A stretch of 24,833 nt of DNA from the UHGV virus genome UHGV-0067666, one strand, 5' to 3'. This stretch comes from a virus. Below are positions 10-15,288 of this stretch, piece by piece. The notes beneath the pieces are model-generated. The model worked only from the letters and a program-made list of their open reading frames with translations, made no database searches and was not told the DNA's origin. The position numbers and the translations under genes were made by a program. Within the stretch, counting starts at the first letter, position 1. Every line of letters starts with the position of its first letter.

Positions 10-29
10 TTGTGTACATTTGTACACAA
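10..29. promoter_or_regulatory. Perfect inverted repeat TTGTGTACA-tt-TGTACACAA upstream of the TetR-family gene; candidate autoregulatory operator
   Basis: 9-bp arms with 2-bp spacer seen directly, ~20 bp upstream of the ATG at 50; TetR regulators commonly bind palindromes in their own promoters. Confidence 0.45.
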
Positions 30-49
30 TTGCAGAGAGAGGAAATGAC

Positions 50-586
50 ATGCGTCGCGCTAACGATCCGCAACGGCGAGAAAAAATTATCCAGGCCACG
101 CTGGAGGCGGTGAAACTTTACGGAATACATGCTGTTACGCACCGCAAAATTGCTACCCTTGCCGGGGTACCGTTGGGATCGATGACCTACTATTTTTCAG
201 GAATTGATGAGTTGTTGCTGGAGGCGTTCAGCAGTTTTACTGAGATTATGTCCCGGCAATATCAGGCATTTTTTAGCGATGTTAGTGATGCTCAAGGCGC
301 ATGCCAGGCTATCACCGATATGATCTACAGCTCACAGGTTGCAACGCCGGATAATATGGAGCTGATGTACCAGCTCTACGCGCTGGCTAGCCGAAAACCG
401 CTATTAAAAACGGTAATGCAAAACTGGATGCAGCGCAGTCAGCAAACGCTCGAACAATGGTTTGAACCCGGAACCGCCCGCGCGCTTGATGCGTTTATTG
501 AGGGGATGACGCTGCATTTTGTCACCGACCGTAAGCCGCTATCGCGCGAGGAGATTTTGAGGATGGTTGAGAGGGTTGCAGGGTAG
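50..586 (+). CDS. rcdA: TetR-family transcriptional regulator (host gene, RcdA/YbjK-like)
   Basis: ORF 20..586 trimmed to ATG at 50 behind GAGAGAGG RBS; N-terminal HTH region typical of TetR proteins; sequence recalled as E. coli YbjK/RcdA, symbol from memory only. Confidence 0.8.
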
Positions 587-2489: not shown

Positions 2490-3059
2490 TTATCTAACAT
2501 ATTTAACTGTTAAACTTATAATTTTTCCAATTATTTCAACATCTTCTATCTTGCAGTCGAAGGCTCTGTTTCCACCTTCAACGAAGATTCTTCCACCGGG
2601 TAAACGAGTAATGTCGCGGATTGTTATCTCGCCATCAATACTTATTACCCATTTACCATCACGTATATCATCAAATTCTTTATCACAAATAAATTCAGAA
2701 TTGTTATCTGTGATGACAAAAGGTTTTTTAAACGTAGAGGGTAGAAATCCCTTATCAAAAATATAAAAACCGTCTTCACGCAAGGCACCATCAGATAATA
2801 CATATTTAGCAACTTCCATAGTATTTGTATTACCTGAAGTTTGCTTTGAACCATGTCCAGTTGTGAGCCAATTAAGCGAGGTGCCCGTTTCAAGGGCGCA
2901 CTGGATTACCCATTCTGCTGGGAATGAGTCACGCATGTAGCGTGTGGCGAGTGTACTTTTAGAGATTCCTAAATGATCGCACAACGCCTGTCGAGTTTTG
3001 AATCCATAAGCTTCTACCATGCGCTCTATAGCGCCTCGTCCGCCTTTCTCCAAATTCAT
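2490..3059 (-). CDS. cI: Prophage repressor, phage 186 CI-like (N-terminal HTH, C-terminal oligomerisation domain)
   Basis: ATG at 3059 behind GGAG RBS; ~190 aa, HTH segment TRQALCDHLGISKSTLATRY; position between int and a divergent apl-like gene as in 186. Confidence 0.75.
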   Translation of the reverse strand: MNLEKGGRGAIERMVEAYGFKTRQALCDHLGISKSTLATRYMRDSFPAEWVIQCALETGTSLNWLTTGHGSKQTSGNTNTMEVAKYVLSDGALREDGFYIFDKGFLPSTFKKPFVITDNNSEFICDKEFDDIRDGKWVISIDGEITIRDITRLPGGRIFVEGGNRAFDCKIEDVEIIGKIISLTVKYVR

Positions 3060-3083
3060 GGTCACTCCAAGTGAACTTTTATC

Positions 3084-4989: not shown

Positions 4990-5843
4990 GCACCATCCTG
5001 AAATGGGCGGGAAATAAAACCGCCATTATGTCCGAACTGAAAAAATACCTTCCTGCTGGCCCGCGACTGGTTGAACCTTTCGCGGGTTCTTGTGCTGTGA
5101 TGATGGCGACGGATTACCCCAGCTATCTGGTTGCGGATATTAATCCTGATTTAATCAACCTCTATAAAAAGATTGCCGCTGATTGCGAAGCGTTTATATC
5201 TCGTGCCAGAGTTTTATTTGAGGAAGCAAACAGTGAGCTGGCTTATTACAACATAAGACAGGAGTTTAATTACTCAACTGAAATTACTGATTTCATGAAG
5301 GCGATATATTTCCTGTATCTCAATCGTCACGGTTACCGTGGTTTATGTCGCTATAACAAGAGCGGGCATTTCAACATTCCCTACGGTAATTATAAAAATC
5401 CGTATTTCCCTGAAAAAGAAATTCGCGCATTTGCAGAGAAAGCCCCGCGGGCAACGTTTATCTGCGCGAGCTTTGATGAAACGCTGGCGATGTTGAAGGC
5501 GCGGGATGTGGTGTATTGCGATCCGCCTTATGACGGTACGTTTTCCGGCTATCACACTGATGGTTTCACTGAAGATGACCAGTATCACCTGGCATCCGTT
5601 CTTGAACATCGAGCATCTGAAGGACATCCGGTCATTGTTTCTAACAGTGACACATCCCTGATCCGTTCGCTGTATCGCAATTTCACTCACCACTACATCA
5701 AGGCAAAACGCAGCATCGGCGTGTCGGCTGGCGAGAGTAAATCTGCAACAGAAATCATTGCTGTTTCCGGGGCGCGCTGCTGGGTGGGATTTGATCCTTC
5801 GCGTGGCGTGGATAGTTCTGCTGTGTACGAGGTGCGTGTATGA
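4986..5843 (+). CDS. dam: DNA adenine methyltransferase, Dam-like (orphan N6-adenine MTase)
   Basis: N-terminal KWAGNK and EPFAGS motifs (AdoMet binding), catalytic DPPY motif; ATGA overlaps with both neighbours. Confidence 0.9.
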
Positions 5844-8260
5844 GTCATGCCGATATGAGCGACTCTAGCGGCTTTAACGAGGCCGCTGCAGCATTTTCAT
5901 GGAACGGCCCGAAAAAGGCCATTAACCCTTATCTGGACCCGGCGGAAGTTGCGCCGGTTTCTGCGCTTTCAAACCTGATCACTCTGTACGCTACCGATAA
6001 CGAGCAGGAACAACTGCGCCGCGAGGCACTGAGTGATCAGGTCTGGGAGCGTTATTTCTTTAATGAATCCCGTGATCCTGTCCAGCGCGAAATGGAGCAG
6101 GATAAGCTCATTAGCCGGGCAAAGTTGGCGCATGAGCAGCAGCGTTTTAACCCGGACATGGTCATTCTGGCAGACGTCAGCGCCCAGCCCTCCCATATCA
6201 GCAAGCCGCTGATGCAACGTATTGAATACTTCAGCAGCCTGGGCAGGCCAAAGGCTTATTCCCGCTATTTACGTGAGACGATTAAGCCATGTCTGGAACG
6301 ACTGGAGCATGTACGCGACAGCCAGCTATCTGCATCTTTTCGTTTTATGGCAAGCCATGTAGGGCTGGACGGCCTGCTGATTCTGCCTGAAATGAGTCAG
6401 GATCAGGTGAAACGCCTGTCTACCCTTGTCGCTGCGCATATGAGCATGTGCCTTGACGCAGCTTGTGGTGATTTGTATGCCACCGATGACGTTAAGCCAG
6501 AAGAAATCCGCAAGACATGGGAAAAGGTGGCAGCGGAAACCCTGCGTCTGGATGTCATCCCGCCTGCGTTTGAGCAACTCCGTCGGAAAAGAAACCGCCG
6601 TAAACCCGTGCCCTATGAACTCATTCCGGGTTCGCTGGCGCGTATGTTGTGCGCCGACTGGTGGTACCGGAAATTATGGAAAATGCGTTGCGAATGGCGG
6701 GAAGAGCAGTTGCGTGCTGTCTGCCTGGTCAGCAAAAAAGCATCTCCCTATGTCAGCTATGAAGCCGTGATGCATAAACGTGAGCAGCGCCGCAAGTCAC
6801 TGGAGTTTTTCCGTTCTCATGAACTGGTGAACGAAGAGGGCGACACGCTGGATATGGAAGACGTGGTAAACGCCAGCAGCAGCAACCCGGCGCACCGCCG
6901 CAATGAGATGATGGCCTGTGTTAAAGGTCTGGAGCTTATCGCGGAAATGCGCGGTGACTGCGCCGTTTTCTACACCATTACCTGTCCGTCACGTTTCCAT
7001 TCTACGCTCAATAACGGCAGACCAAACCCAACCTGGACAAATGCGACGGTAAGACAAAGCAGCGATTATCTGGTCGGCATGTTTGCTGCATTTCGTAAGG
7101 CGATGCACAAAGCCGGGTTGCGCTGGTATGGCGTGCGGGTGGCTGAGCCGCATCATGACGGTACAGTTCACTGGCACCTGTTGTGTTTCATGCGCAAAAA
7201 AGACCGCCGCGCCATTACTGCATTGTTGCGTAAGTTTGCCATCCGTGAAGACCGCGAGGAACTGGGTAATAACACTGGTCCACGCTTTAAATCTGAGCTG
7301 ATAAACCCGCGCAAAGGTACGCCAACAAGCTACATCGCGAAATACATCAGTAAGAACATTGACGGGCGTGGTCTGGCTGGCGAGATCAGCAAGGAAACGG
7401 GTAAATCCCTGCGTGATAACGCTGAATACGTTAATGCCTGGGCGTCTCTGCATCGTGTTCAGCAATTCCGCTTCTTTGGCATTCCGGGGCGTCAGGCTTA
7501 CCGTGAACTGCGATTGCTGGCTGGTCAGGCGGCAAGGCAGCAGGGTGACAAAAAAGTAGGTGCGCCGGTACTGGATAACCCGCGCCTTGATGCAATCCTG
7601 GCTGCTGCTGATGCTGGTTGTTTTGCCACCTACATCATGAAGCAGGGCGGCGTACTGGTTCCCCGCAAATATCACCTCATCAGAACTGCTTATGAAATCA
7701 ACGAAGAGCCGACCGCCTATGGCGATCACGGTATTCGTATTTATGGCATCTGGTCACCCATTGCAGAGGGCAAGATCTGCACTCATGCGGTGAAGTGGAA
7801 AATGGTTCGTAAGGCCGTTGACGTTCAGGAGGCGGCAGCCGACCAGGGCGCTTGCGCCCCTTGGACTCGGACTCGTGGCAATAACTGTCCCCTTGCTGAA
7901 AATTTGAACCAACAAGGGAAAGACAAATCAGCTGATGGGGATACCAGAACGGATATCACCCGCATGGATGACAAGGAGTTGCACGATTACCTGCACAGTA
8001 TGAGCAAAAAAGAGCGCCGGGAACTGGCAGCAAGATTACGCCTGGTTAAACCGAAACGGCGTAAAGACTACAAACAGCGAATTACAGAGTATCAGCGTCA
8101 GCAGCTCGTCTATGAACTGAAGTCCAGAGGATTTGATGGCAGCGAGAAAGAGGTCGATTTGCTCCTTCGCGGTGGCAGTATTCCGTCAGGAGCAGGCCTG
8201 CGTATCTTCTATCGGAACCAGCGTTTGCAGGAAGATGATAAGTGGCGGAACCTGTATTAA
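5840..8260 (+). CDS. A: Replication initiation protein A (rolling-circle nicking endonuclease, P2 gpA family)
   Basis: 806 aa; HWHLL metal-binding motif and YIAKYISKN tyrosine motif typical of P2 A-type initiators; position after early operon. Confidence 0.9.
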
Positions 8261-8352
8261 TCACGCGGGTTAACAATCCGTGCTCTTAATAATACCAGGC
8301 ATATCAGGCTGATGAACGTAAAAAAACGTTTTACATCAGTAAGATTATTATA

Positions 8353-8372
8353 TACTGTAAATATAAACAGTG
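8353..8372. promoter_or_regulatory. LexA (SOS) box TACTGTAAATATAAACAGTG
   Basis: CTG-N10-CAG with AT-rich centre, 17/20 match to consensus TACTGTATATATATACAGTA; overlaps a TATACT -10-like hexamer; sits ~40 bp upstream of the small ORF at 8414. Confidence 0.6.
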
Positions 8373-8413
8373 ATTATATATACAGTATTTCTTGTGGTGT
8401 CATAGGAGGAAAG

Positions 8414-8602
8414 ATGCAGGACTATTTTTTGGAGTCTTTGAAGCTCCAGCGCATTGATTTTTTTCTTAAGCTTGTAGCGGCTAGTGAGTGTAGTGATGAA
8501 GAGAAGGGGCTGGCTTTGCAGTGGGTTTCTGAACTAACAGATGAACTCATGGCAAAAATCAGAACCCACGAATACAACCGCTCAATGGATGTCATCAGTT
8601 GA
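8414..8602 (+). CDS. Small LexA-controlled protein (62 aa), candidate antirepressor (Tum-position gene)
   Basis: ATG at 8414 with AGGAGGA RBS; the longer TTG-initiated ORF 8312..8602 would include the promoter and LexA box. Confidence 0.5.
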   Translation: MQDYFLESLKLQRIDFFLKLVAASECSDEEKGLALQWVSELTDELMAKIRTHEYNRSMDVIS

Positions 8603-8612
8603 GGTGACTTTT

Positions 8613-8846
8613 ATGCGCATTGAAATAATGATCGATAAAGAGCAGAAGATTAGCCAGTCTACCCTGGACGCCCTTGAATCCGAGCTTTACCGTAATCTGC
8701 GCCCCCTGTATCCCAAAACGGTAATTCGTATCCGCAAAGGTAGCTCTAACGGTGTGGAACTGACCGGACTGCAACTGGACGAAGAAAGGAAGCAAGTGAT
8801 GAAAATTATGCAGAAGGTGTGGGAAGACGACAGCTGGCTGCATTAA
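8613..8846 (+). CDS. dinI: DinI-family protein (DNA-damage-inducible protein I homologue)
   Basis: 77 aa beginning MRIEIMIDKEQ with conserved DALESEL and C-terminal acidic W-containing tail, closely paralleling E. coli DinI (MRIEVTIAK...DALAGEL...WESADDWF); GAGG RBS. Confidence 0.8.
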   Translation: MRIEIMIDKEQKISQSTLDALESELYRNLRPLYPKTVIRIRKGSSNGVELTGLQLDEERKQVMKIMQKVWEDDSWLH

Positions 8847-8918
8847 GAAACGTTGCTGGCGTCTGAACTTGCTTCTGGCGTCAGCAAGGTTGAACAACGA
8901 GCTGTGCGAGGCGTTAGT

Positions 8919-8933
8919 TGATATAGTATCAAT
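8919..8933. promoter_or_regulatory. Perfect palindrome TTGATA-tag-TATCAA upstream of HNH gene; candidate operator or promoter element
   Basis: Seen directly, ~35 bp upstream of the ATG at 8969. Confidence 0.3.
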
Positions 8934-8968
8934 ATATAAAAGGTTTCTCGAAGTTTTAAGGTAAGGTT

Positions 8969-9688
8969 ATGACAACTATTAACAAGCATGGGTTATCTAG
9001 AACAATTCCTGAACCTGTAAAACTGGAGGTAAGGCAGCGCTGTGGCTTTGGTTGCGTTGTTTGTGCTTCTCCCATTGTTGAGTATGAGCATGTAATTCCC
9101 ACATACGCTGATGCAAAGGAGCACTCTCCAAATGCAATAGCACTACTTTGTCCTACGTGCCATGCGAAAGTAACGAAACGTCTTTACTCTAAAGAGAAAA
9201 TAATTAAAGCAATGGAATCTCCTGCAGCCTTACAAAAAGGGAATGTGGCCGATATATTGGACTTTTCTGATAGGCATCCAACAATAATATTTGGTGGTGC
9301 GACGTTTGAATCCTGTACTGTACCAATAATGTTTCAAAATGAGCCATTGTTAACCATTGAAAAAGAAAATAATGCTTTTCTTATTTCGGGTAAATTTTAC
9401 GATAGTCAAGGTATTGTTAATCTTGAATTAATTAAGAATGAGTGGGTTTGTAGTGCAAGGCATTGGGATGTTCAGGTTGTTGGTCCTAGAATAACTATTA
9501 TAGAAAAAAGGAAAGGTCCTCGTTTAATTATTAAAGTTGATGCGCCTGAAAGATTGATTGTGGAAAGATTAGATATGTTGGTTAAGGGGACTCGGATTGT
9601 AGGAGACGAACACAAGCTAAGAGTAGGTCCACATCAATTTCACAATTGTGGAGTTTCAAATTGCAATATTGGTTTCTGCTTTGGCTAA
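8969..9688 (+). CDS. HNH-endonuclease domain protein with uncharacterised C-terminal domain (~150 aa)
   Basis: N-terminal CGFGCVVC...EYEHVIP...NAIALLCPTCHAK, a CxxC...EH...N...CxxCH HNH signature; AT-rich codon usage unlike the neighbouring backbone. Confidence 0.7.
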   Translation: MTTINKHGLSRTIPEPVKLEVRQRCGFGCVVCASPIVEYEHVIPTYADAKEHSPNAIALLCPTCHAKVTKRLYSKEKIIKAMESPAALQKGNVADILDFSDRHPTIIFGGATFESCTVPIMFQNEPLLTIEKENNAFLISGKFYDSQGIVNLELIKNEWVCSARHWDVQVVGPRITIIEKRKGPRLIIKVDAPERLIVERLDMLVKGTRIVGDEHKLRVGPHQFHNCGVSNCNIGFCFG

Positions 9689-9801
9689 CTGGAGGTTGGA
9701 AAAAGACCATTTCCTGTAAGCTGAGTATTTCGTACATTTTTGCCAACGCATGTCTATGCCGCATGAAATCGCATGATCGTTTGAGGATCGTTTTTGCTGA
9801 T

Positions 9802-9829
9802 GCCCGCCAGAGCTGGCGGGCTTTTGCTT
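9802..9829 (+). terminator. Rho-independent terminator (GCCCGCCAG / CTGGCGGGC stem followed by TTTTGCTT)
   Basis: 9-bp GC-rich inverted repeat plus T-run seen directly, downstream of the HNH gene. Confidence 0.6.
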
Positions 9830-9870
9830 ATGTCATGCAGGTGCATGAAAACCACTACACAAAGCGGGCA

Positions 9871-9889
9871 GGCGTGGCGGGGATACGAG
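9871..9889. other. Candidate cos site (cohesive-end sequence) GGCGTGGCGGGGATACGAG
   Basis: From memory, P2/186 cohesive ends are 19-nt G-rich sequences beginning GGCG(A/T)GGCGGGGA; first 13 nt match that recollection; orientation relative to the portal gene matches P2. Confidence 0.35.
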
Positions 9890-9991
9890 CGCGCGCTAAC
9901 TCATAAATCCTAGATTATTAGTGGATTTATCTCATTGAAATGTGCACTATTCCCAGCATTGAGTTGTACCAGATGTCTTTATGGAGGGACT

Positions 9992-11758
9992 GTGGCTTTT
10001 GTAACTGATATTCGGCTTGAAGATAATGCTATTGCTGCACCTGCGACAGCACAGGTTATGGCTCAGAGGCTAGGATCTGTATTACGTAAGAGATATGAAG
10101 AATTCATCCATAAAAGAGAGTGTGCACCAGGCCAAGCAGACTATGATGTAAAAATGGCTAGCAGGGCTTTAGCTGCATTCACTATGTATCAGTTAGGATG
10201 TGTGGATGATAAGTATGCAGGGGAGTCTGTATGTGATAGTAGTGAAGATGGTGGTATAGATGGAATAGCAATCAACCATAACGAAAAAATCGTTGTTGTT
10301 GTTCAATCAAAATTTCACCAATCGGGAAACGGCACTTGGACAAGAGCCGATTTTATGTGTTTTAAGGATGCTTGTGAGAAGCTACAAAGTGAAAGATACG
10401 AATTATTTGATTCCATATTGCAAAATAAAAGCGGGGAAATAAGTGCGGCTTTAAGTAGTTTTGAATACAAGTTCATCTTTGCGATGGCGCATACAGGTAA
10501 AAAAGGTGCTGCAGAGGAAATATTAAATGATATGCGGGAATGGCAATATCAATTAAACGCTGCAGCTTTTACACCTGAGGATGAGCCTAAAGAGAACTGG
10601 GGATTTCAGGTTCATTTAATATCCTCTGAAGATATGATGCATTGGTTACAGAATGGCTCTCGAAATCAAATTGATCTTAACAGGGTTGAAATTGAGCGTT
10701 TTGGATTTTTGAATGAACCATATCAAGCTTTTTACGGGGCTATTAGTGGTGATCAAGTTGCAGAATGGTGGGAAGAGCATGGTGCTCGATTATTTACAAA
10801 AAACATAAGGAATATGCTTGGTAAAACAGAAGTGAATGAGGAAATAAAAAAGACAGCTATAGATAATCCTGATATGTTTTGGTTTTATAATAATGGGATT
10901 ACTGTACTGGTTAAGGAAGTTGTTCCTCATAGACGAAACGCAGCTCCTAATATAGAGAGAGGGATTTTTGATTTTCGTGATGTAAGTGTCATTAATGGTG
11001 CACAAACAGTCAGTAGTATTGGCGCATGTAAAGATGCGCTTGGTGAAAACATATATAGACTCAAAGTGCCAGCTAGATTCATTGTTATAGATGATGATAC
11101 TGATAATTTAACTGCAAATGCAATTACAAAAGCTAACAATTTCCAAAATAGAGTATTGGGAAGAGATTTTGCATCGCAGCAGGCAGATCAACATAGATTG
11201 GCAAGGGAGTTAGTGCTTGAAGGATATCAATATCAGTTACTAAGAACAGATGAAGATCATTCACAGACAAATACGAAAGTCATTGACTTGGATGAGGCGC
11301 TCAATGCACTCGCATGTTTAAGTAAAAATAATACGGTTGTATCGACACTAAAATCAAATCGCGGTAGGTTTTTTGAAAATTTTGAAGGCTCTCTATATAA
11401 AACTATTTTCAATCCAAGATTAAGTGGTTTAAAACTTATCAATACTGTTCTACATTTTAGAGTTATAGATAAGTTGATCGGTAAAACATTACTATCAGTA
11501 GATAAAACGACCCATAGTCGCAAGCATTTAATTATTACGCATGGTAATAGATACTATGCGTCTGTACTATTGAGCAACGTTTCTGGGATACATAATAGCT
11601 CAGAAATTCTTGTTCCAGATGAAAAAAATCTTTCCGAAGAATTAAGTGCATTAATTCAACGTGCTGAAGAGTACATTGAAGATAATTACCCGAATGCCTA
11701 TCCGGCAAGATTTTTTGCAAATCCAACGAAAATACAAGAGTTATACGATAATGTTTAA
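9992..11758 (+). CDS. AIPR-like (abortive infection phage resistance family) protein with N-terminal PD-(D/E)xK-like nuclease motif
   Basis: ORF 9935..11758 (TTG); likely start GTG 9992 behind GGAGGG, or ATG 10058; motif DGGIDGIAINHNEKIVVVVQSKF resembles a D...(E/Q)xK nuclease core; later NGITVL and INGAQT motifs recalled as AIPR-typical; AT-rich. Confidence 0.65.
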   Translation: MAFVTDIRLEDNAIAAPATAQVMAQRLGSVLRKRYEEFIHKRECAPGQADYDVKMASRALAAFTMYQLGCVDDKYAGESVCDSSEDGGIDGIAINHNEKIVVVVQSKFHQSGNGTWTRADFMCFKDACEKLQSERYELFDSILQNKSGEISAALSSFEYKFIFAMAHTGKKGAAEEILNDMREWQYQLNAAAFTPEDEPKENWGFQVHLISSEDMMHWLQNGSRNQIDLNRVEIERFGFLNEPYQAFYGAISGDQVAEWWEEHGARLFTKNIRNMLGKTEVNEEIKKTAIDNPDMFWFYNNGITVLVKEVVPHRRNAAPNIERGIFDFRDVSVINGAQTVSSIGACKDALGENIYRLKVPARFIVIDDDTDNLTANAITKANNFQNRVLGRDFASQQADQHRLARELVLEGYQYQLLRTDEDHSQTNTKVIDLDEALNALACLSKNNTVVSTLKSNRGRFFENFEGSLYKTIFNPRLSGLKLINTVLHFRVIDKLIGKTLLSVDKTTHSRKHLIITHGNRYYASVLLSNVSGIHNSSEILVPDEKNLSEELSALIQRAEEYIEDNYPNAYPARFFANPTKIQELYDNV

Positions 11759-11789: not shown

Positions 11790-12818
11790 TTAGAAATGGT
11801 ATTCTTGGAATTCAATAACACCTTCTTCTATGAAATTGTTTATTTCTTGTAATCTTTTTTGCAATGGCAATAATTCATTACGTACAAATACTTTACTCGC
11901 CTTCTCTACATCTCCAAAGCCCCCAACATTATTAGGCATTATCCCCATCATTTGCGGCGGCACACGGTGTGCCGCCATCATGTCGTCCCGACTCACGTTC
12001 TTGATATTCAGAAACTCATCCTTCGCCGCGACTTCTGACAACGGGATAATCTGAAGCCCGTCCTTTTTGCCGTTAGGAGAGTACATAAACAGGTTGCGGA
12101 AGTTGCCTGGCCCTTTGGCGCTTTTCATTGCGTTGCGGAGGTTGTTCACATCTTCTTGGTTCTGCGCGGCATCGGTCATGTACATGATGAAACCTGCATG
12201 GCTGCCGTTGATGTAATACTTACGGCGGAACAGTGTGGCGGACTCGTTGAGCAGGGCTGACGGGATGGCAGAAAGATAACCTGGCAGGCCGTAGATCTCC
12301 TGGTTGATGTCCGGTTCCATCAGATGAAAAATGCTGCCTTTCGTGAACTGATACGGCTGGGCTGTCATACCGTATTGCACAAACCAGTAGGTATCCAGGT
12401 CTAATCCGCGTCGGGTGTATTTTGCCAAAGCTGGCTCAAGGGCGATAACTTCACCAAAGCGGTTCGTGCGTTTCTCCAGGTAGGCGTTACCAAATACCAG
12501 ATAGTCCTGCACAAAACGCGAAAAAGCCTGCTGGCTAAGCAGCGGATGAGGGATATAGGTACTGGTCAGAATGTTGCACTTTACTGCAATCGGGGAACTG
12601 TGATGCACGGCGGCGCGGAAGGTGCGCGCCAGTCCATTAAAGCTGACGGGCGGCTCATACCAGCGATCCATCTGTACGCATTCCACATAGTCCAGCAGTT
12701 CGCGGCGGTCCAGCACGGGGATGGGATCACCAAAGCTGAAAGCCTCAGCCGTTGGGCCGTTGCTTGGTTTTGTGTCGTGATCAACTGTTACCTGCTTGGT
12801 GTTTTTACGTTTGCTCAT
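11790..12818 (-). CDS. Q: Portal protein (P2 gpQ family)
   Basis: 342 aa, size and position as P2 Q, immediately downstream of terminase-region genes on minus strand; start ATG overlaps stop of upstream ORF (ATGA). Confidence 0.8.
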   Translation of the reverse strand: MSKRKNTKQVTVDHDTKPSNGPTAEAFSFGDPIPVLDRRELLDYVECVQMDRWYEPPVSFNGLARTFRAAVHHSSPIAVKCNILTSTYIPHPLLSQQAFSRFVQDYLVFGNAYLEKRTNRFGEVIALEPALAKYTRRGLDLDTYWFVQYGMTAQPYQFTKGSIFHLMEPDINQEIYGLPGYLSAIPSALLNESATLFRRKYYINGSHAGFIMYMTDAAQNQEDVNNLRNAMKSAKGPGNFRNLFMYSPNGKKDGLQIIPLSEVAAKDEFLNIKNVSRDDMMAAHRVPPQMMGIMPNNVGGFGDVEKASKVFVRNELLPLQKRLQEINNFIEEGVIEFQEYHF

Positions 12819-13522
12819 TCTGCCAGTTCCTTGCTAGCGAGAGGCCATTCGCACATAAACAGCATTTTCCAGTCCTCTTCTGATAATTCTTTTTTCATAT
12901 CGTTCAGCCAGTTATCAGTAAACAACATTGCTCCAGATGCTGCTGCGTCATCTGCGGTGAACACCATGCTGGTTACGCTGTTGTTTCTGCATAGCTTTTT
13001 ATATTCCTGCCGTGCCTCTGGGTTAGGGCTGGGAGTGGTGTAGTAGGTGGCGTGGTAGTGTGCGTGCATAGAAATCCCTTTAGCGATGGCAATCATATTT
13101 CTCGGTGATTCACTCCAGGCATACTCTGACACGTAAACATTTCCACTGAGTGCGGAGGTGAGACTGCTGAGGTCGGTAAAATAAATTACTGCACCATTCG
13201 GAAGCTCCAGATGACTTTTGCCTGATTTTATTTTTCCAGTGTGCGTATAAGCTGCGGCCTGGCTTAAGAATGCTGATACACAGGCTTTGATTGCCTGCGC
13301 AGATGCTGTGCTGCAGCAGAGGAAAATCTGGTTACGCCCGGTATGCAGTGCATCGTTCAGGGCTTCATAGGAAAAAAAGAAATCCGCGCCTGCCTGGCGC
13401 ATTTTTGTGAGTACACGGTTTCTACTCTTTGGGCCAGTGTTCCACTCATACTGGTAAGCAAAGAAAAAGCTATCCACCGGAAGTCCCGCGATAGTCATGA
13501 GGTTAGTTGGGATTGGGGGCAT
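12815..13522 (-). CDS. Terminase large-subunit ATPase-domain paralogue (235 aa), extra gene between P and Q
   Basis: Aligns to the central region of the adjacent 588-aa terminase (e.g. FFFSYEALNDALHTGRNQIFLCCSTAS vs FYFAREALIDALLTGRNQIFLSASKAQ; GNVYVSEYAW vs GNLYLDEYFW; YYTTPS vs YFSTPS); GGAG RBS; start overlaps P stop (TGATG) and stop overlaps Q start (ATGA). Confidence 0.7.
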   Translation of the reverse strand: MPPIPTNLMTIAGLPVDSFFFAYQYEWNTGPKSRNRVLTKMRQAGADFFFSYEALNDALHTGRNQIFLCCSTASAQAIKACVSAFLSQAAAYTHTGKIKSGKSHLELPNGAVIYFTDLSSLTSALSGNVYVSEYAWSESPRNMIAIAKGISMHAHYHATYYTTPSPNPEARQEYKKLCRNNSVTSMVFTADDAAASGAMLFTDNWLNDMKKELSEEDWKMLFMCEWPLASKELAE

Positions 13523-15288
13523 CAAAAAATCTCCACAATATTGCTGGTATTGGCGGATTCGCCCTGCAGCGGTTCGTTAAACAGTGCGTGCATCGTTGCC
13601 CAGGCCAGATCGGCGTGGCTGGCTTCTTCGCTGCGGCTGGCTTCATAGGTTGGGCGGTTGCCGCTCGCGGTGGTGGCGCGACGGATTGCCATGAATGACT
13701 GCGCTATGTCGGTGTGTCCGGCGTCAAACTCCAGACGGCGGTGGCTGATAATGTCGTAGGCCTTGAGTACCAGGGCGTTTTTAACATTGGGGTTATAGAC
13801 AAACTCCCGGACGGCTGGAAAAAACGCTTTCACGTTCTCGTAAACCCCGTGGCCGACACCTGTCGAGTCGATGCCGATGTAGGTCACGTTGTACTGCTCG
13901 GTCAGTTTTTTGATGGCGTCAGCCTGGGCGCGGAAGTCCATCCCACGCCACTGGTGACGCTCAAGAATGCGGAACTTACCACCAGGCACGGCTGGCGGTG
14001 CCACCACTACGCATCCGGCGCTGTCGCCGTTTTGCGTACCTTTTGCCGGGTCATAACCGATCCACACTTCGCGCCAGCCAAACGGGCGCAGAGCCAGTGC
14101 ATGAAAGTCGGTCCAGACTTCCCAGCTGTCCACCATGCACGCCTGCAGCTCGCTGAGCGGGAACACGGACGCGAGATCGTCCACAAACTCGCACATCAGC
14201 AGGTTCTGGTATTCGTCCGGGCTGTACTCCATGCGCAACTGGTCAAGGTCGAACAGGTTACAGCCGCCGCGCACCGCATCTTCCACGGTGACTATCTGGC
14301 GGTATTGCCCGTCTGCGCACAGCAGGCCGGGGGCCAGATTGCTGTGGGACAGGTCGATGTCCACCTTGTCGGCCTTGTTGCGCCCACGGTTGAACAGCGC
14401 ACCGGACCAGAACGGATAAGCACTGTGTGTCAGGCTGGATGGCGTGGAAAAATAGGTTTGTCGCCATTTTTTGTGAATAGCCATACCGGAAGCCACTTTG
14501 CGCAGCTCCTGGAATTTCGGTATCCAGAAATATTCATCCAGATACAGGTTGCCGTGATAACTCTGGGCCGTGCGGGCATTGGTGCCGAGGAAGTAAAGCG
14601 TGGCTCCGTTAGGAAGCACCATCGGATCGCCTTTCAGCTCCACCTCGACTTCTTTGGCGAAGTCTATGATGTACTGCTTAAAGACGTGAGCCTGTGCCTT
14701 ACTGGCAGAAAGGAAAATCTGGTTACGTCCGGTAAGCAGGGCGTCAATCAGGGCTTCACGGGCAAAGTAAAAGGTCGCGCCGATCTGGCGTGACTTCAGC
14801 AGGTTGCGGATGCGGTTGGTTTTTCCGGCTTCCCACCAGTGGCGCTGGTAGTTGAACATGGAGGAATGGAAAATTTCTTCCAGCTTCTCAATCTGTTCAT
14901 CGGTGAAAACATTCTTTTCCGGCTGACGGCGCGGGCCTTTGTTGCGGTTGGCGACGTTAGGGTTTAAGTCGGCTTCGTTACCGCCATTGTTAAACTTGCC
15001 GATCCGCGCGTGGCGCTCCGACTGGCGCGCCAGCAGGTCAATTTCTTTGAAATCTTTCCCTTCTTTGTGCTCCTTCATAATGAGCTGGCAGTAGCGTGCG
15101 GCGGTGGTGAGCTGCATCTGATCCAGCGGCCCATAGTCACCCCACTTGTCGCGTTTTTTCCAGCTGTGAACGGTTGCAACTTTCTCGCCCAGCATTTCAG
15201 CAATGCGGGCTACGCGGTATCCCTGAAAGTACAGCAGCATGGCCTGCCGACGGGGATCGAGATCTGCGGGTGTCAGTGTGGTGTTCAT
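13522..15288 (-). CDS. P: Terminase large subunit (ATPase/nuclease, P2 gpP family)
   Basis: 588 aa, size as P2 P; ATPase-like core with hhhhDE motif LYLDEY; divergent from the scaffold operon as in P2. Confidence 0.9.
   Translation of the reverse strand: MNTTLTPADLDPRRQAMLLYFQGYRVARIAEMLGEKVATVHSWKKRDKWGDYGPLDQMQLTTAARYCQLIMKEHKEGKDFKEIDLLARQSERHARIGKFNNGGNEADLNPNVANRNKGPRRQPEKNVFTDEQIEKLEEIFHSSMFNYQRHWWEAGKTNRIRNLLKSRQIGATFYFAREALIDALLTGRNQIFLSASKAQAHVFKQYIIDFAKEVEVELKGDPMVLPNGATLYFLGTNARTAQSYHGNLYLDEYFWIPKFQELRKVASGMAIHKKWRQTYFSTPSSLTHSAYPFWSGALFNRGRNKADKVDIDLSHSNLAPGLLCADGQYRQIVTVEDAVRGGCNLFDLDQLRMEYSPDEYQNLLMCEFVDDLASVFPLSELQACMVDSWEVWTDFHALALRPFGWREVWIGYDPAKGTQNGDSAGCVVVAPPAVPGGKFRILERHQWRGMDFRAQADAIKKLTEQYNVTYIGIDSTGVGHGVYENVKAFFPAVREFVYNPNVKNALVLKAYDIISHRRLEFDAGHTDIAQSFMAIRRATTASGNRPTYEASRSEEASHADLAWATMHALFNEPLQGESANTSNIVEIF

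Follow-up and report, generated by a model that had tools for sequence, protein, structure and literature searches.

A probable split-form tumA-tumB SOS operon, with a predicted colicin-type double LexA operator, in a 186/Fels-2-type Escherichia coli prophage

The SOS operon of phage 186, with its promoter p95 and its product Tum, has reportedly been described by Lamont in 1989, Brumby in 1996 and Shearwin in 1998. In Tum, an antirepressor and a DinI-like sequence are fused; in the prophages Fels-2 and PSP3 the tum gene is split by a stop codon, and in PSP3 the antirepressor is the upstream gene and the DinI homologue the downstream one (Lemire et al. 2011, PMC3121763). In its action, 186 Tum is described as binding the CI repressor reversibly and blocking its binding to the operator (Shearwin et al. 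1998, as cited in PMC3121763). The annotation of the PSP3 record agrees with this picture: it has a tumA, "similar to 5' end 186 tum; UV induction of prophage", and a tumB. The subject of this work is a region of the virus genome UHGV-0067666, of which a stretch of 24,833 nucleotides, here called the window, was analysed. In this region an open reading frame of 62 amino acids (ORF62) and a DinI homologue lie behind a LexA box, and the whole is very probably the tumA-tumB SOS operon, in its split form, of an E. coli prophage of the 186/Fels-2 type, where TumA would inactivate a non-cleavable CI.

The system is already known, and there are genetic tests of it for a nearly identical prophage, DuoHS of E. 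coli HS. ORF62 is identical at 61 of its 62 residues to ECHS_RS04495 of E. coli HS, and likewise to STM2728 of Fels-2. The gene called tum in the Phollow study is this same 62-residue DuoHS gene: its in-frame deletion, or a lexA(Ind-) background, leaves neither lysis nor virions after mitomycin C, while in the delta-tum strain the SOS reporter of the host continues to respond (PMC12055606). As for Fels-2, it is said to have been lost from all the lexA-null survivors of Salmonella LT2 (Bunny et al. 2002, as cited in PMC12626290). By analogy, the DuoHS genetics support the original prediction for this DNA, which held that induction would probably need a LexA-controlled antirepressor of the 186 Tum kind. 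The elements of the operon and its presumed target are the following.

8330..8335, plus strand: -35 hexamer TTTACA, counterpart of that of 186 p95
8353..8358, plus strand: -10 hexamer TACTGT, within the distal LexA box
8353..8372, plus strand: distal LexA box, TACTGTAAATATAAACAGTG
8368..8387, plus strand: proximal LexA box, CAGTGATTATATATACAGTA
8404..8409, plus strand: Shine-Dalgarno sequence of tumA, AGGAGG
8414..8602, plus strand: tumA, 62 amino acids, predicted antirepressor and homologue of the N-terminal half of 186 Tum
8601..8607, plus strand: Shine-Dalgarno-like sequence of tumB, GAGGTGA
8613..8846, plus strand: tumB, 77 amino acids, DinI family, homologue of the C-terminal half of Tum
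2490..3059, minus strand: cI, 186-type immunity repressor, presumed target of TumA

The promoter is built like p95. Its -35 hexamer agrees with TTGACA at five of six positions and lies 17 base pairs (bp) upstream of TACTGT, which is assigned as the -10 hexamer by analogy and on its conservation. In 186 the annotated -10 of p95 is also the TACTGT of a LexA box, and the geometry in the window is identical; at the level of sequence, this is a promoter whose -10 is overlapped by a LexA site. A generic scan for sigma-70 promoters and terminators did not call the SOS promoter, because TACTGT matches TATAAT at only three of six positions; its sole call was a small hairpin where tumA meets tumB. The motif CTGTAAATATAAACAG at 8355-8370 is the sole CTGT-N8-ACAG in the 24.8-kb window, where 0.35 would be expected by chance. 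Boxes were scored by their mismatches to the E. coli 20-mer LexA consensus, TACTGTATATATATACAGTA; the window has a single match with no more than three mismatches, and 100 dinucleotide-preserving shuffles gave none. This is the distal box, 17/20 to the consensus, which covers the -10 hexamer.

Conservation was assessed in 33 related loci from different Enterobacterales species, with flanks of up to 8 kb each, taken from genera that include Escherichia, Citrobacter, Enterobacter, Klebsiella, Raoultella, Kluyvera, Serratia, Pantoea, Erwinia and Tatumella. The operator comparison covers 34 loci, the codon analysis of tumA 34 distinct coding sequences, and the covariation of TumA and CI the 27 loci with both genes. 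The distal box position is occupied in all 34 loci, with one to five mismatches, and a TTTACA-like hexamer lies 16-18 bp (usually 17) upstream of the box in 33 of them. Among the complete loci, from at least 30 Enterobacterales species, the LexA box and the -35 hexamer are kept at fixed spacing in every case.

The original prediction described a single LexA box, and a second one, proximal to tumA, can be added to it. This box matches the consensus at 16 of 20 positions, its left half being degenerate and its right half perfect, and overlaps the distal box by 5 nucleotides. A second box at the same fixed 15-nucleotide offset is present in 24 of the 34 loci, with three to six mismatches, the window, Fels-2 and DuoHS included (the double-operator loci fall under labels L005-L028 and L038-L039, plus the window); none was found in 186, PSP3 or the Pantoea, Erwinia and Tatumella loci, which have a single box each. 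Where else does such an operator occur? Double SOS boxes were reportedly described by Lu and Chak in 1996 in colicin operons, e.g., those of colicins N, E1 and K, and the likeness is close: the two boxes of the window have three and four mismatches, those of the colicin N and pore-former operators 4-5 and 4-6 at the identical offset, and the pairs, each overlapping by 5 nucleotides, are of nearly the same sequence (TACTGTAAATATAAACAGTGATTATATATACAGTA in the window, TACTGTATATAAAACCAGTGGTTATATGTACAGTG in colicin N cna). A plasmid search with the Fels-2 operator matched more than 1,000 records, and in both of the two small mobilizable plasmids that were inspected the match of 45-49 bp immediately precedes a colicin gene, that of colicin N in one and of a pore-forming colicin in the other. 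Judged by its sequence, the operator of the window is a colicin-type double LexA box, although the colicin operators drive a plasmid toxin and lysis operon and this one a prophage antirepressor. To our knowledge, only for colicins has it been demonstrated that two LexA dimers bind cooperatively. Two LexA dimers bind the colicin double boxes (PMC2994835), and by analogy two may occupy the operator of the window too.

Behind this operator, tumA runs from an ATG at 8414 to a stop codon at 8600-8602. Its Shine-Dalgarno sequence was read from the DNA, and AGGAGG or GGAGG is kept before the ATG in the related loci. Over the 34 distinct coding sequences, the mean rate of nonsynonymous substitution (dN) is 0.075 and that of synonymous substitution (dS) is 1.17, with a dN/dS of ∼0.06; by this codon comparison, tumA is a real gene under strong purifying selection. 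In the AlphaFold2 model, TumA forms a hairpin of two helices (residues 2-23 and 28-61), with a mean predicted local distance difference test score of 89. A Foldseek search with this model returned generic helical hairpins only, none of them at E≤0.001, a sequence search of the PDB with the TumA profile gave no significant match, and PADLOC holds no model for TumA.

The annotation of this gene deserves a comment. The mechanical list of open reading frames gives a 96-amino-acid version that starts at an ATG at 8312 (8312-8602), and this version would hold the promoter and the LexA boxes within the coding sequence. Gene callers often pick the same extension (database entries P0005, P0018 and others), and the records name TumA mostly "hypothetical protein" and in some cases "levan regulatory protein". 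Both the extension and the latter name appear to be annotation artefacts, and the 62-residue gene can safely be named TumA.

Is ORF62 related to Tum? Pairwise BLASTP aligned it with neither 186 Tum nor PSP3 TumA, but profile comparisons do link them. ORF62 matches the PHROG family phrog_698 with E=3.6e-38, and residues 1-70 of 186 Tum match the same family with E=5.9e-6, residues 6-44 falling on profile positions 6-44. Another family, phrog_8554, bridges the two, being matched by ORF62 at 2.4e-8 and by the N-terminal part of Tum at 3.4e-12, and ORF62 reaches 0.0022 against phrog_1993, the family of PSP3 TumA. When a 14-sequence alignment of the ORF62 family was compared with a 20-sequence alignment of the Tum N-terminal family, hhalign gave E=4.7e-4, with columns 1-44 on 1-44 and no gap. 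The joint MAFFT alignment is gapless as well, and the residues in common are M1, E7, R13, L20, C26, A34, E40, L41 and K48. The homology is visible at the profile level only. Fast divergence appears to be the norm in this family, because PSP3 TumA and the N-terminal part of 186 Tum, both assigned to phrog_1993, are also invisible to each other in BLASTP. By these profiles, ORF62 and the N-terminal half of Tum are homologous, remotely but still recognizably.

This relationship also explains the size of the protein: 186 Tum, with 146 amino acids, is a two-domain fusion, and here the two domains are separate genes. Many N domains of the 186 type also stand alone, as proteins of 63-78 amino acids. 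The original prediction was right to place ORF62 in the position of Tum and to note that it is much shorter; its tentative suggestion of a different antirepressor does not hold, for ORF62 corresponds to the N-terminal half of a split Tum. The arrangement is the published "split tum" one and not a new kind of antirepressor. A literature search on the names "TumA/TumB" returned unrelated papers only.

The second gene, tumB, extends from an ATG at 8613 to a stop codon at 8844-8846. TumB matches the Pfam DinI family (PF06183) with E=6.6e-23 and 81.3 bits over residues 14-76, the cut-off being 24.2 bits, and the E. coli DinI structure 1GHH at 2.7e-6, in an alignment of residues 1-75 that takes in the final ...QKVWEDDSW; its membership in the DinI family thus includes the C-terminal acidic helix. 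TumB is 41% identical to residues 71-145 of 186 Tum, 78% identical to PSP3 TumB and 100% identical to STM2726.1 of Fels-2. With these results, what had been read from the letters alone is confirmed: the near-consensus LexA box over a -10-like hexamer, the 62-residue frame with a strong ribosome-binding site and the clear DinI homologue are all present. The range of the proposed module, 8331-8846, takes in the promoter from 8331 on, and the coding coordinates shift by one base, to starts at 8414 and 8613.

The two genes are closely joined. The start of tumB lies 10 nucleotides past the stop of tumA, and its Shine-Dalgarno-like sequence and the tumA stop codon overlap, both being spanned by a 6-bp hairpin (GTCATC-AGTTGA-GGTGAC) at 8591-8608. 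This hairpin and the overlap make translational coupling plausible, and the translation of tumB could be coupled to that of tumA. The sequence around the junction differs in other loci, and in most of them tumB starts 9-12 nucleotides after the tumA stop. About one-third of the loci with an intact tumA and LexA operator have a tumB that is absent, truncated or frameshifted (L011, L012, L016, L021, L022, L025, L026, L030-L036, L038 and L039), and tumA and the operator are kept throughout the loci, with or without tumB. Because of these losses, TumB appears, from the comparison of loci, to be dispensable for the module.

The presumed target, CI, is encoded on the opposite strand ∼5.5 kb upstream of tumA. 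Its open reading frame spans 2490..3065 on the minus strand, and the start chosen is the ATG that gives MNLEKGG..., as in E. coli HS, for a product of 189 amino acids. This protein matches the Pfam families Phage_CI_repr (2.8e-33) and Phage_CI_C (1e-28); with Peptidase_S24 it scores 16.6 bits, under the 23.3-bit cut-off, and no Ala-Gly or Cys-Gly dipeptide occurs in its 189 residues. It does not have the features of a self-cleaving (S24) repressor, as the original prediction had noted when it saw no obvious LexA-type autocleavage signature, and on its sequence it is classed as non-self-cleaving. CI is 31% identical to 186 CI, which is its nearest solved structure by sequence (PDB 2FJR, 8e-31), and 95% identical to DuoHS CI.

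Taken together, these elements suggest the following mechanism. In an undamaged lysogen, LexA would sit on the double operator, with the distal box on the -10 hexamer and the proximal one just downstream, and keep the promoter shut. DNA damage would bring about the RecA-stimulated self-cleavage of LexA and open the promoter. TumA, a predicted 62-residue acidic helical hairpin, would then bind the 186-type CI and stop it from binding DNA; with CI off the DNA, the early lytic promoter would fire and the prophage would be induced. TumB, made from its own ribosome-binding site, would most likely modulate the activity of the RecA filament, and hence the SOS signal, in an accessory role that induction would not need.

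Several points weigh against this picture. LexA binding, the transcription start and the contact between TumA and CI are, at this locus, all inferred from the sequence; the binding of TumA to CI and the need for TumA in SOS induction are carried over by analogy from the DuoHS gene, which is 98% identical, and from 186 Tum. As for the homology, the BLASTP comparisons with Tum are blank, the hhalign probability is only 32%, and the relationship rests on profiles of short proteins. The deletion in DuoHS does not fully separate the two genes, because coupling could make it lower the expression of tumB as well. Finally, TumA and CI do not co-vary, which one would not expect of an inhibitor that is specific for its protein target.

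Could ORF62, then, hold the position of Tum without being related to it, as an antirepressor of a new kind? The blank BLASTP results would fit, and so would the lack of a Pfam family for ORF62 and the "unknown function" under which phrog_698 is listed. The same blindness of BLASTP is usual within the family, however, as PSP3 TumA and 186 Tum demonstrate, and the in-register profile matches, the bridging family, the hhalign result and the gapless merged alignment all point to Tum. Since the promoter, the operator, the position and the downstream DinI-type partner are also the same as in the Tum systems, an unrelated antirepressor is highly improbable. A slightly smaller chance still is given to the idea that the DinI-like protein is the true inducer, acting for example via RecA, with ORF62 an accessory or leader peptide whose deletion is polar. 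Coupling through the 8591-8608 hairpin, where the ribosome-binding site of tumB overlaps the tumA stop, would make such polarity plausible, and in 186 an internal start does yield the DinI-like part as a product by itself. Yet this idea is at odds with the loci, about one-third of them, that keep tumA and its operator after tumB was lost or degraded, and with the strong purifying selection on tumA. In PSP3, moreover, the antirepressor activity is in the upstream gene, by both publication (PMC3121763) and annotation, and the truncated DinI-like products of 186 are annotated as modulators only.

The least probable of the alternatives is that the two frames are a fused tum decaying through a nonsense mutation, in a prophage that is defective or cannot be induced. 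It draws on the fused form of 186 and on the decayed tumB of some related loci, but it is already contradicted: both split genes have a ribosome-binding site of their own, Fels-2, PSP3 and DuoHS, which are inducible, carry the split form, and the stand-alone N domains of 186-type Tum are common. The split module is found in many genera and in 1125 of 5426 complete E. coli genomes (∼21%), and the dN/dS of tumA is that of a gene in use. The split tumA-tumB operon, with TumA as the antirepressor of CI, is by far the best account of the region.

A last intriguing point is how TumA and CI evolve with respect to each other. Over the loci with both genes, the pairwise identity of TumA has a median of 87% (range 67-100%) and that of CI a median of 41%, with 56% for the N-terminal domain and 30% for the C-terminal one. 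The two identities are uncorrelated (Spearman rho -0.09), and in the 43 pairs in which TumA is at least 95% identical, CI ranges from 29 to 99%, with a median of 40%. Loci whose CI proteins agree at only ∼40% thus keep TumA proteins that are 71-100% identical. Phage-collection records with a TumA 98-100% identical to that of the window have a CI 40-54% identical to the window CI. Fels-2 and DuoHS, both LexA-dependent, illustrate this: their TumA proteins are identical at 60 of 62 residues and their CI proteins at ∼38%. A prophage of Pantoea stewartii (L028) has this type of TumA and a CI 60% identical to 186 CI.

Two explanations are available for an invariant TumA next to divergent CIs: either TumA recognizes a surface conserved in the CI family, or recombination regularly yields mismatched pairs. 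The former is favored because tumA and the operator are under strong purifying selection in every context. It can be proposed, tentatively and as something rather less than probable, that TumA of the Fels-2/DuoHS type is of broad specificity and reads a surface conserved throughout the 186-CI family, not that of one cognate partner, and that the double operator sets a higher and later threshold of induction than the single box of 186. Motifs conserved in CI are ETG...WL..G.G and DG.WL..I.G...LPG...FEC. If this were true, one SOS-induced TumA could induce heteroimmune 186-like prophages in trans. Neither the double LexA operator nor the decoupling of TumA and CI was found described in the literature searched. 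Both bear on the co-induction of co-resident heteroimmune P2/186-like prophages and on its damage threshold, and the module itself sets the lytic switch after DNA damage, that from antibiotics included, in common prophages of E. coli, Salmonella and Klebsiella.

The surroundings of the operon are those of a 186/Fels-2-type (Peduoviridae) E. coli prophage with its left host flank. Pfam and PHROG profiles identify the regulators CI, Cox/Apl-like and CII (CP76) in the window, which also holds an integrase and a Dam methylase. The module is directly 3' of the replication gene A, and two E. coli chromosomes carry it at 100% identity. At the left edge of the window, a TetR-family gene (20-586, plus strand) is probably the host rcdA; in E. 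coli HS, rcdA is the neighbor of the DuoHS prophage, and a correspondence of the two genes would point to a shared integration site. The neighboring features are as follows.

5840-8260: replication gene A, directly upstream of the SOS module, named by analogy with the HS and Fels-2 annotations
8853..8887, plus strand: GC-rich hairpin closing the module, with an 11-bp stem and no U-tract
8969-9688, plus strand: HNH-domain protein, 239 amino acids, phrog_6544 (unknown function)
9935-11758, plus strand: AIPR-family protein, 607 amino acids, with a PADLOC match to AbiU (7e-25)
11790-12818: portal gene Q
13522-15288: terminase gene P

Downstream of tumB, the RNA fold of 8840-8970 has -34.7 kcal/mol and z=-2.05 and contains the 8853-8887 stem. 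A similar TTGCTGGCGT...ACGTCA hairpin directly follows tumA in loci without tumB. The hairpin is possibly a partial terminator or an RNA end, like t95a of 186; Rfam gave no RNA family within 8000-10000. Similarity to other phages stops near 8917. The cargo beyond it (8969-11758, plus strand) is variable and fills the interval from tumB to the portal gene, which is where P2 has its tin/old defence hotspot. Its 239-residue product was considered as a counterpart of 186 Orf97 or of Fels-2 STM2726 and rejected, there being no similarity to either.

Between Q and P, and overlapping each by 4 nucleotides, lies a frame for 236 amino acids on the minus strand (12815-13525); in DuoHS of E. coli HS, Q and P adjoin directly, with no intervening frame. 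The product matches the Pfam family Terminase_6N (3.7e-16), is 32% identical to residues 142-368 of the adjacent full-length terminase and has no nuclease domain; by its sequence it is a paralogue of the ATPase domain of terminase, divergent and standing alone. A true orthologue is found in 3 of 50,697 phage records, e.g., in Yersinia phage MLG42 with 74% identity, and PADLOC has no model for it. A decoy, an anti-satellite or a defence role can only be guessed.

How does the operon compare with the known systems? TumB is, like E. coli DinI (1GHH), a full-length member of the DinI family with a C-terminal acidic W-E-D-D-S-W helix; unlike it, TumB is phage-borne and predicted to be co-transcribed with an antirepressor. 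The GfoA and GftA systems of the Gifsy prophages (Lemire et al. 2011, PMC3121763) have a similar logic, namely, a LexA-repressed operon with a small antirepressor and a DinI homologue directed against an uncleaved repressor, and their antirepressors can act in trans on the repressors of other prophages. The Gifsy prophages are lambdoid, however, with unrelated families of repressor and antirepressor and the reversed gene order, dinI first.

The remaining systems are true relatives, and the gene order around the module is that of 186, PSP3, Fels-2 and DuoHS alike. With 186 the window shares a LexA box on the -10 hexamer of a promoter just past gene A, an antirepressor domain homologous at the profile level, a DinI-like domain 41% identical and, as the presumed target, an uncleaved CI of the 186 type. 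The differences are that 186 has one 146-residue fusion with an internal start for the DinI-like part in place of two genes, a single LexA box in place of two overlapping ones, and a next gene, Orf97, that is not conserved in the window. PSP3 is closer in its architecture, which is split and annotated as such, with a tumA of 60 amino acids and a DinI-like tumB at 78% identity, but its TumA belongs to the phrog_1993 subfamily, its LexA box is single and its CI is larger and different. Closest of all are STM2728/STM2726.1 of Fels-2 and ECHS_RS04495/RS04500 of DuoHS: the CI of Fels-2 is only ∼38% identical to that of the window, and both prophages differ in the cargo downstream of tumB, yet their genes, with TumA identical at 61 of 62 residues and TumB at 100%, are essentially those of the window, and the double operator is shared.

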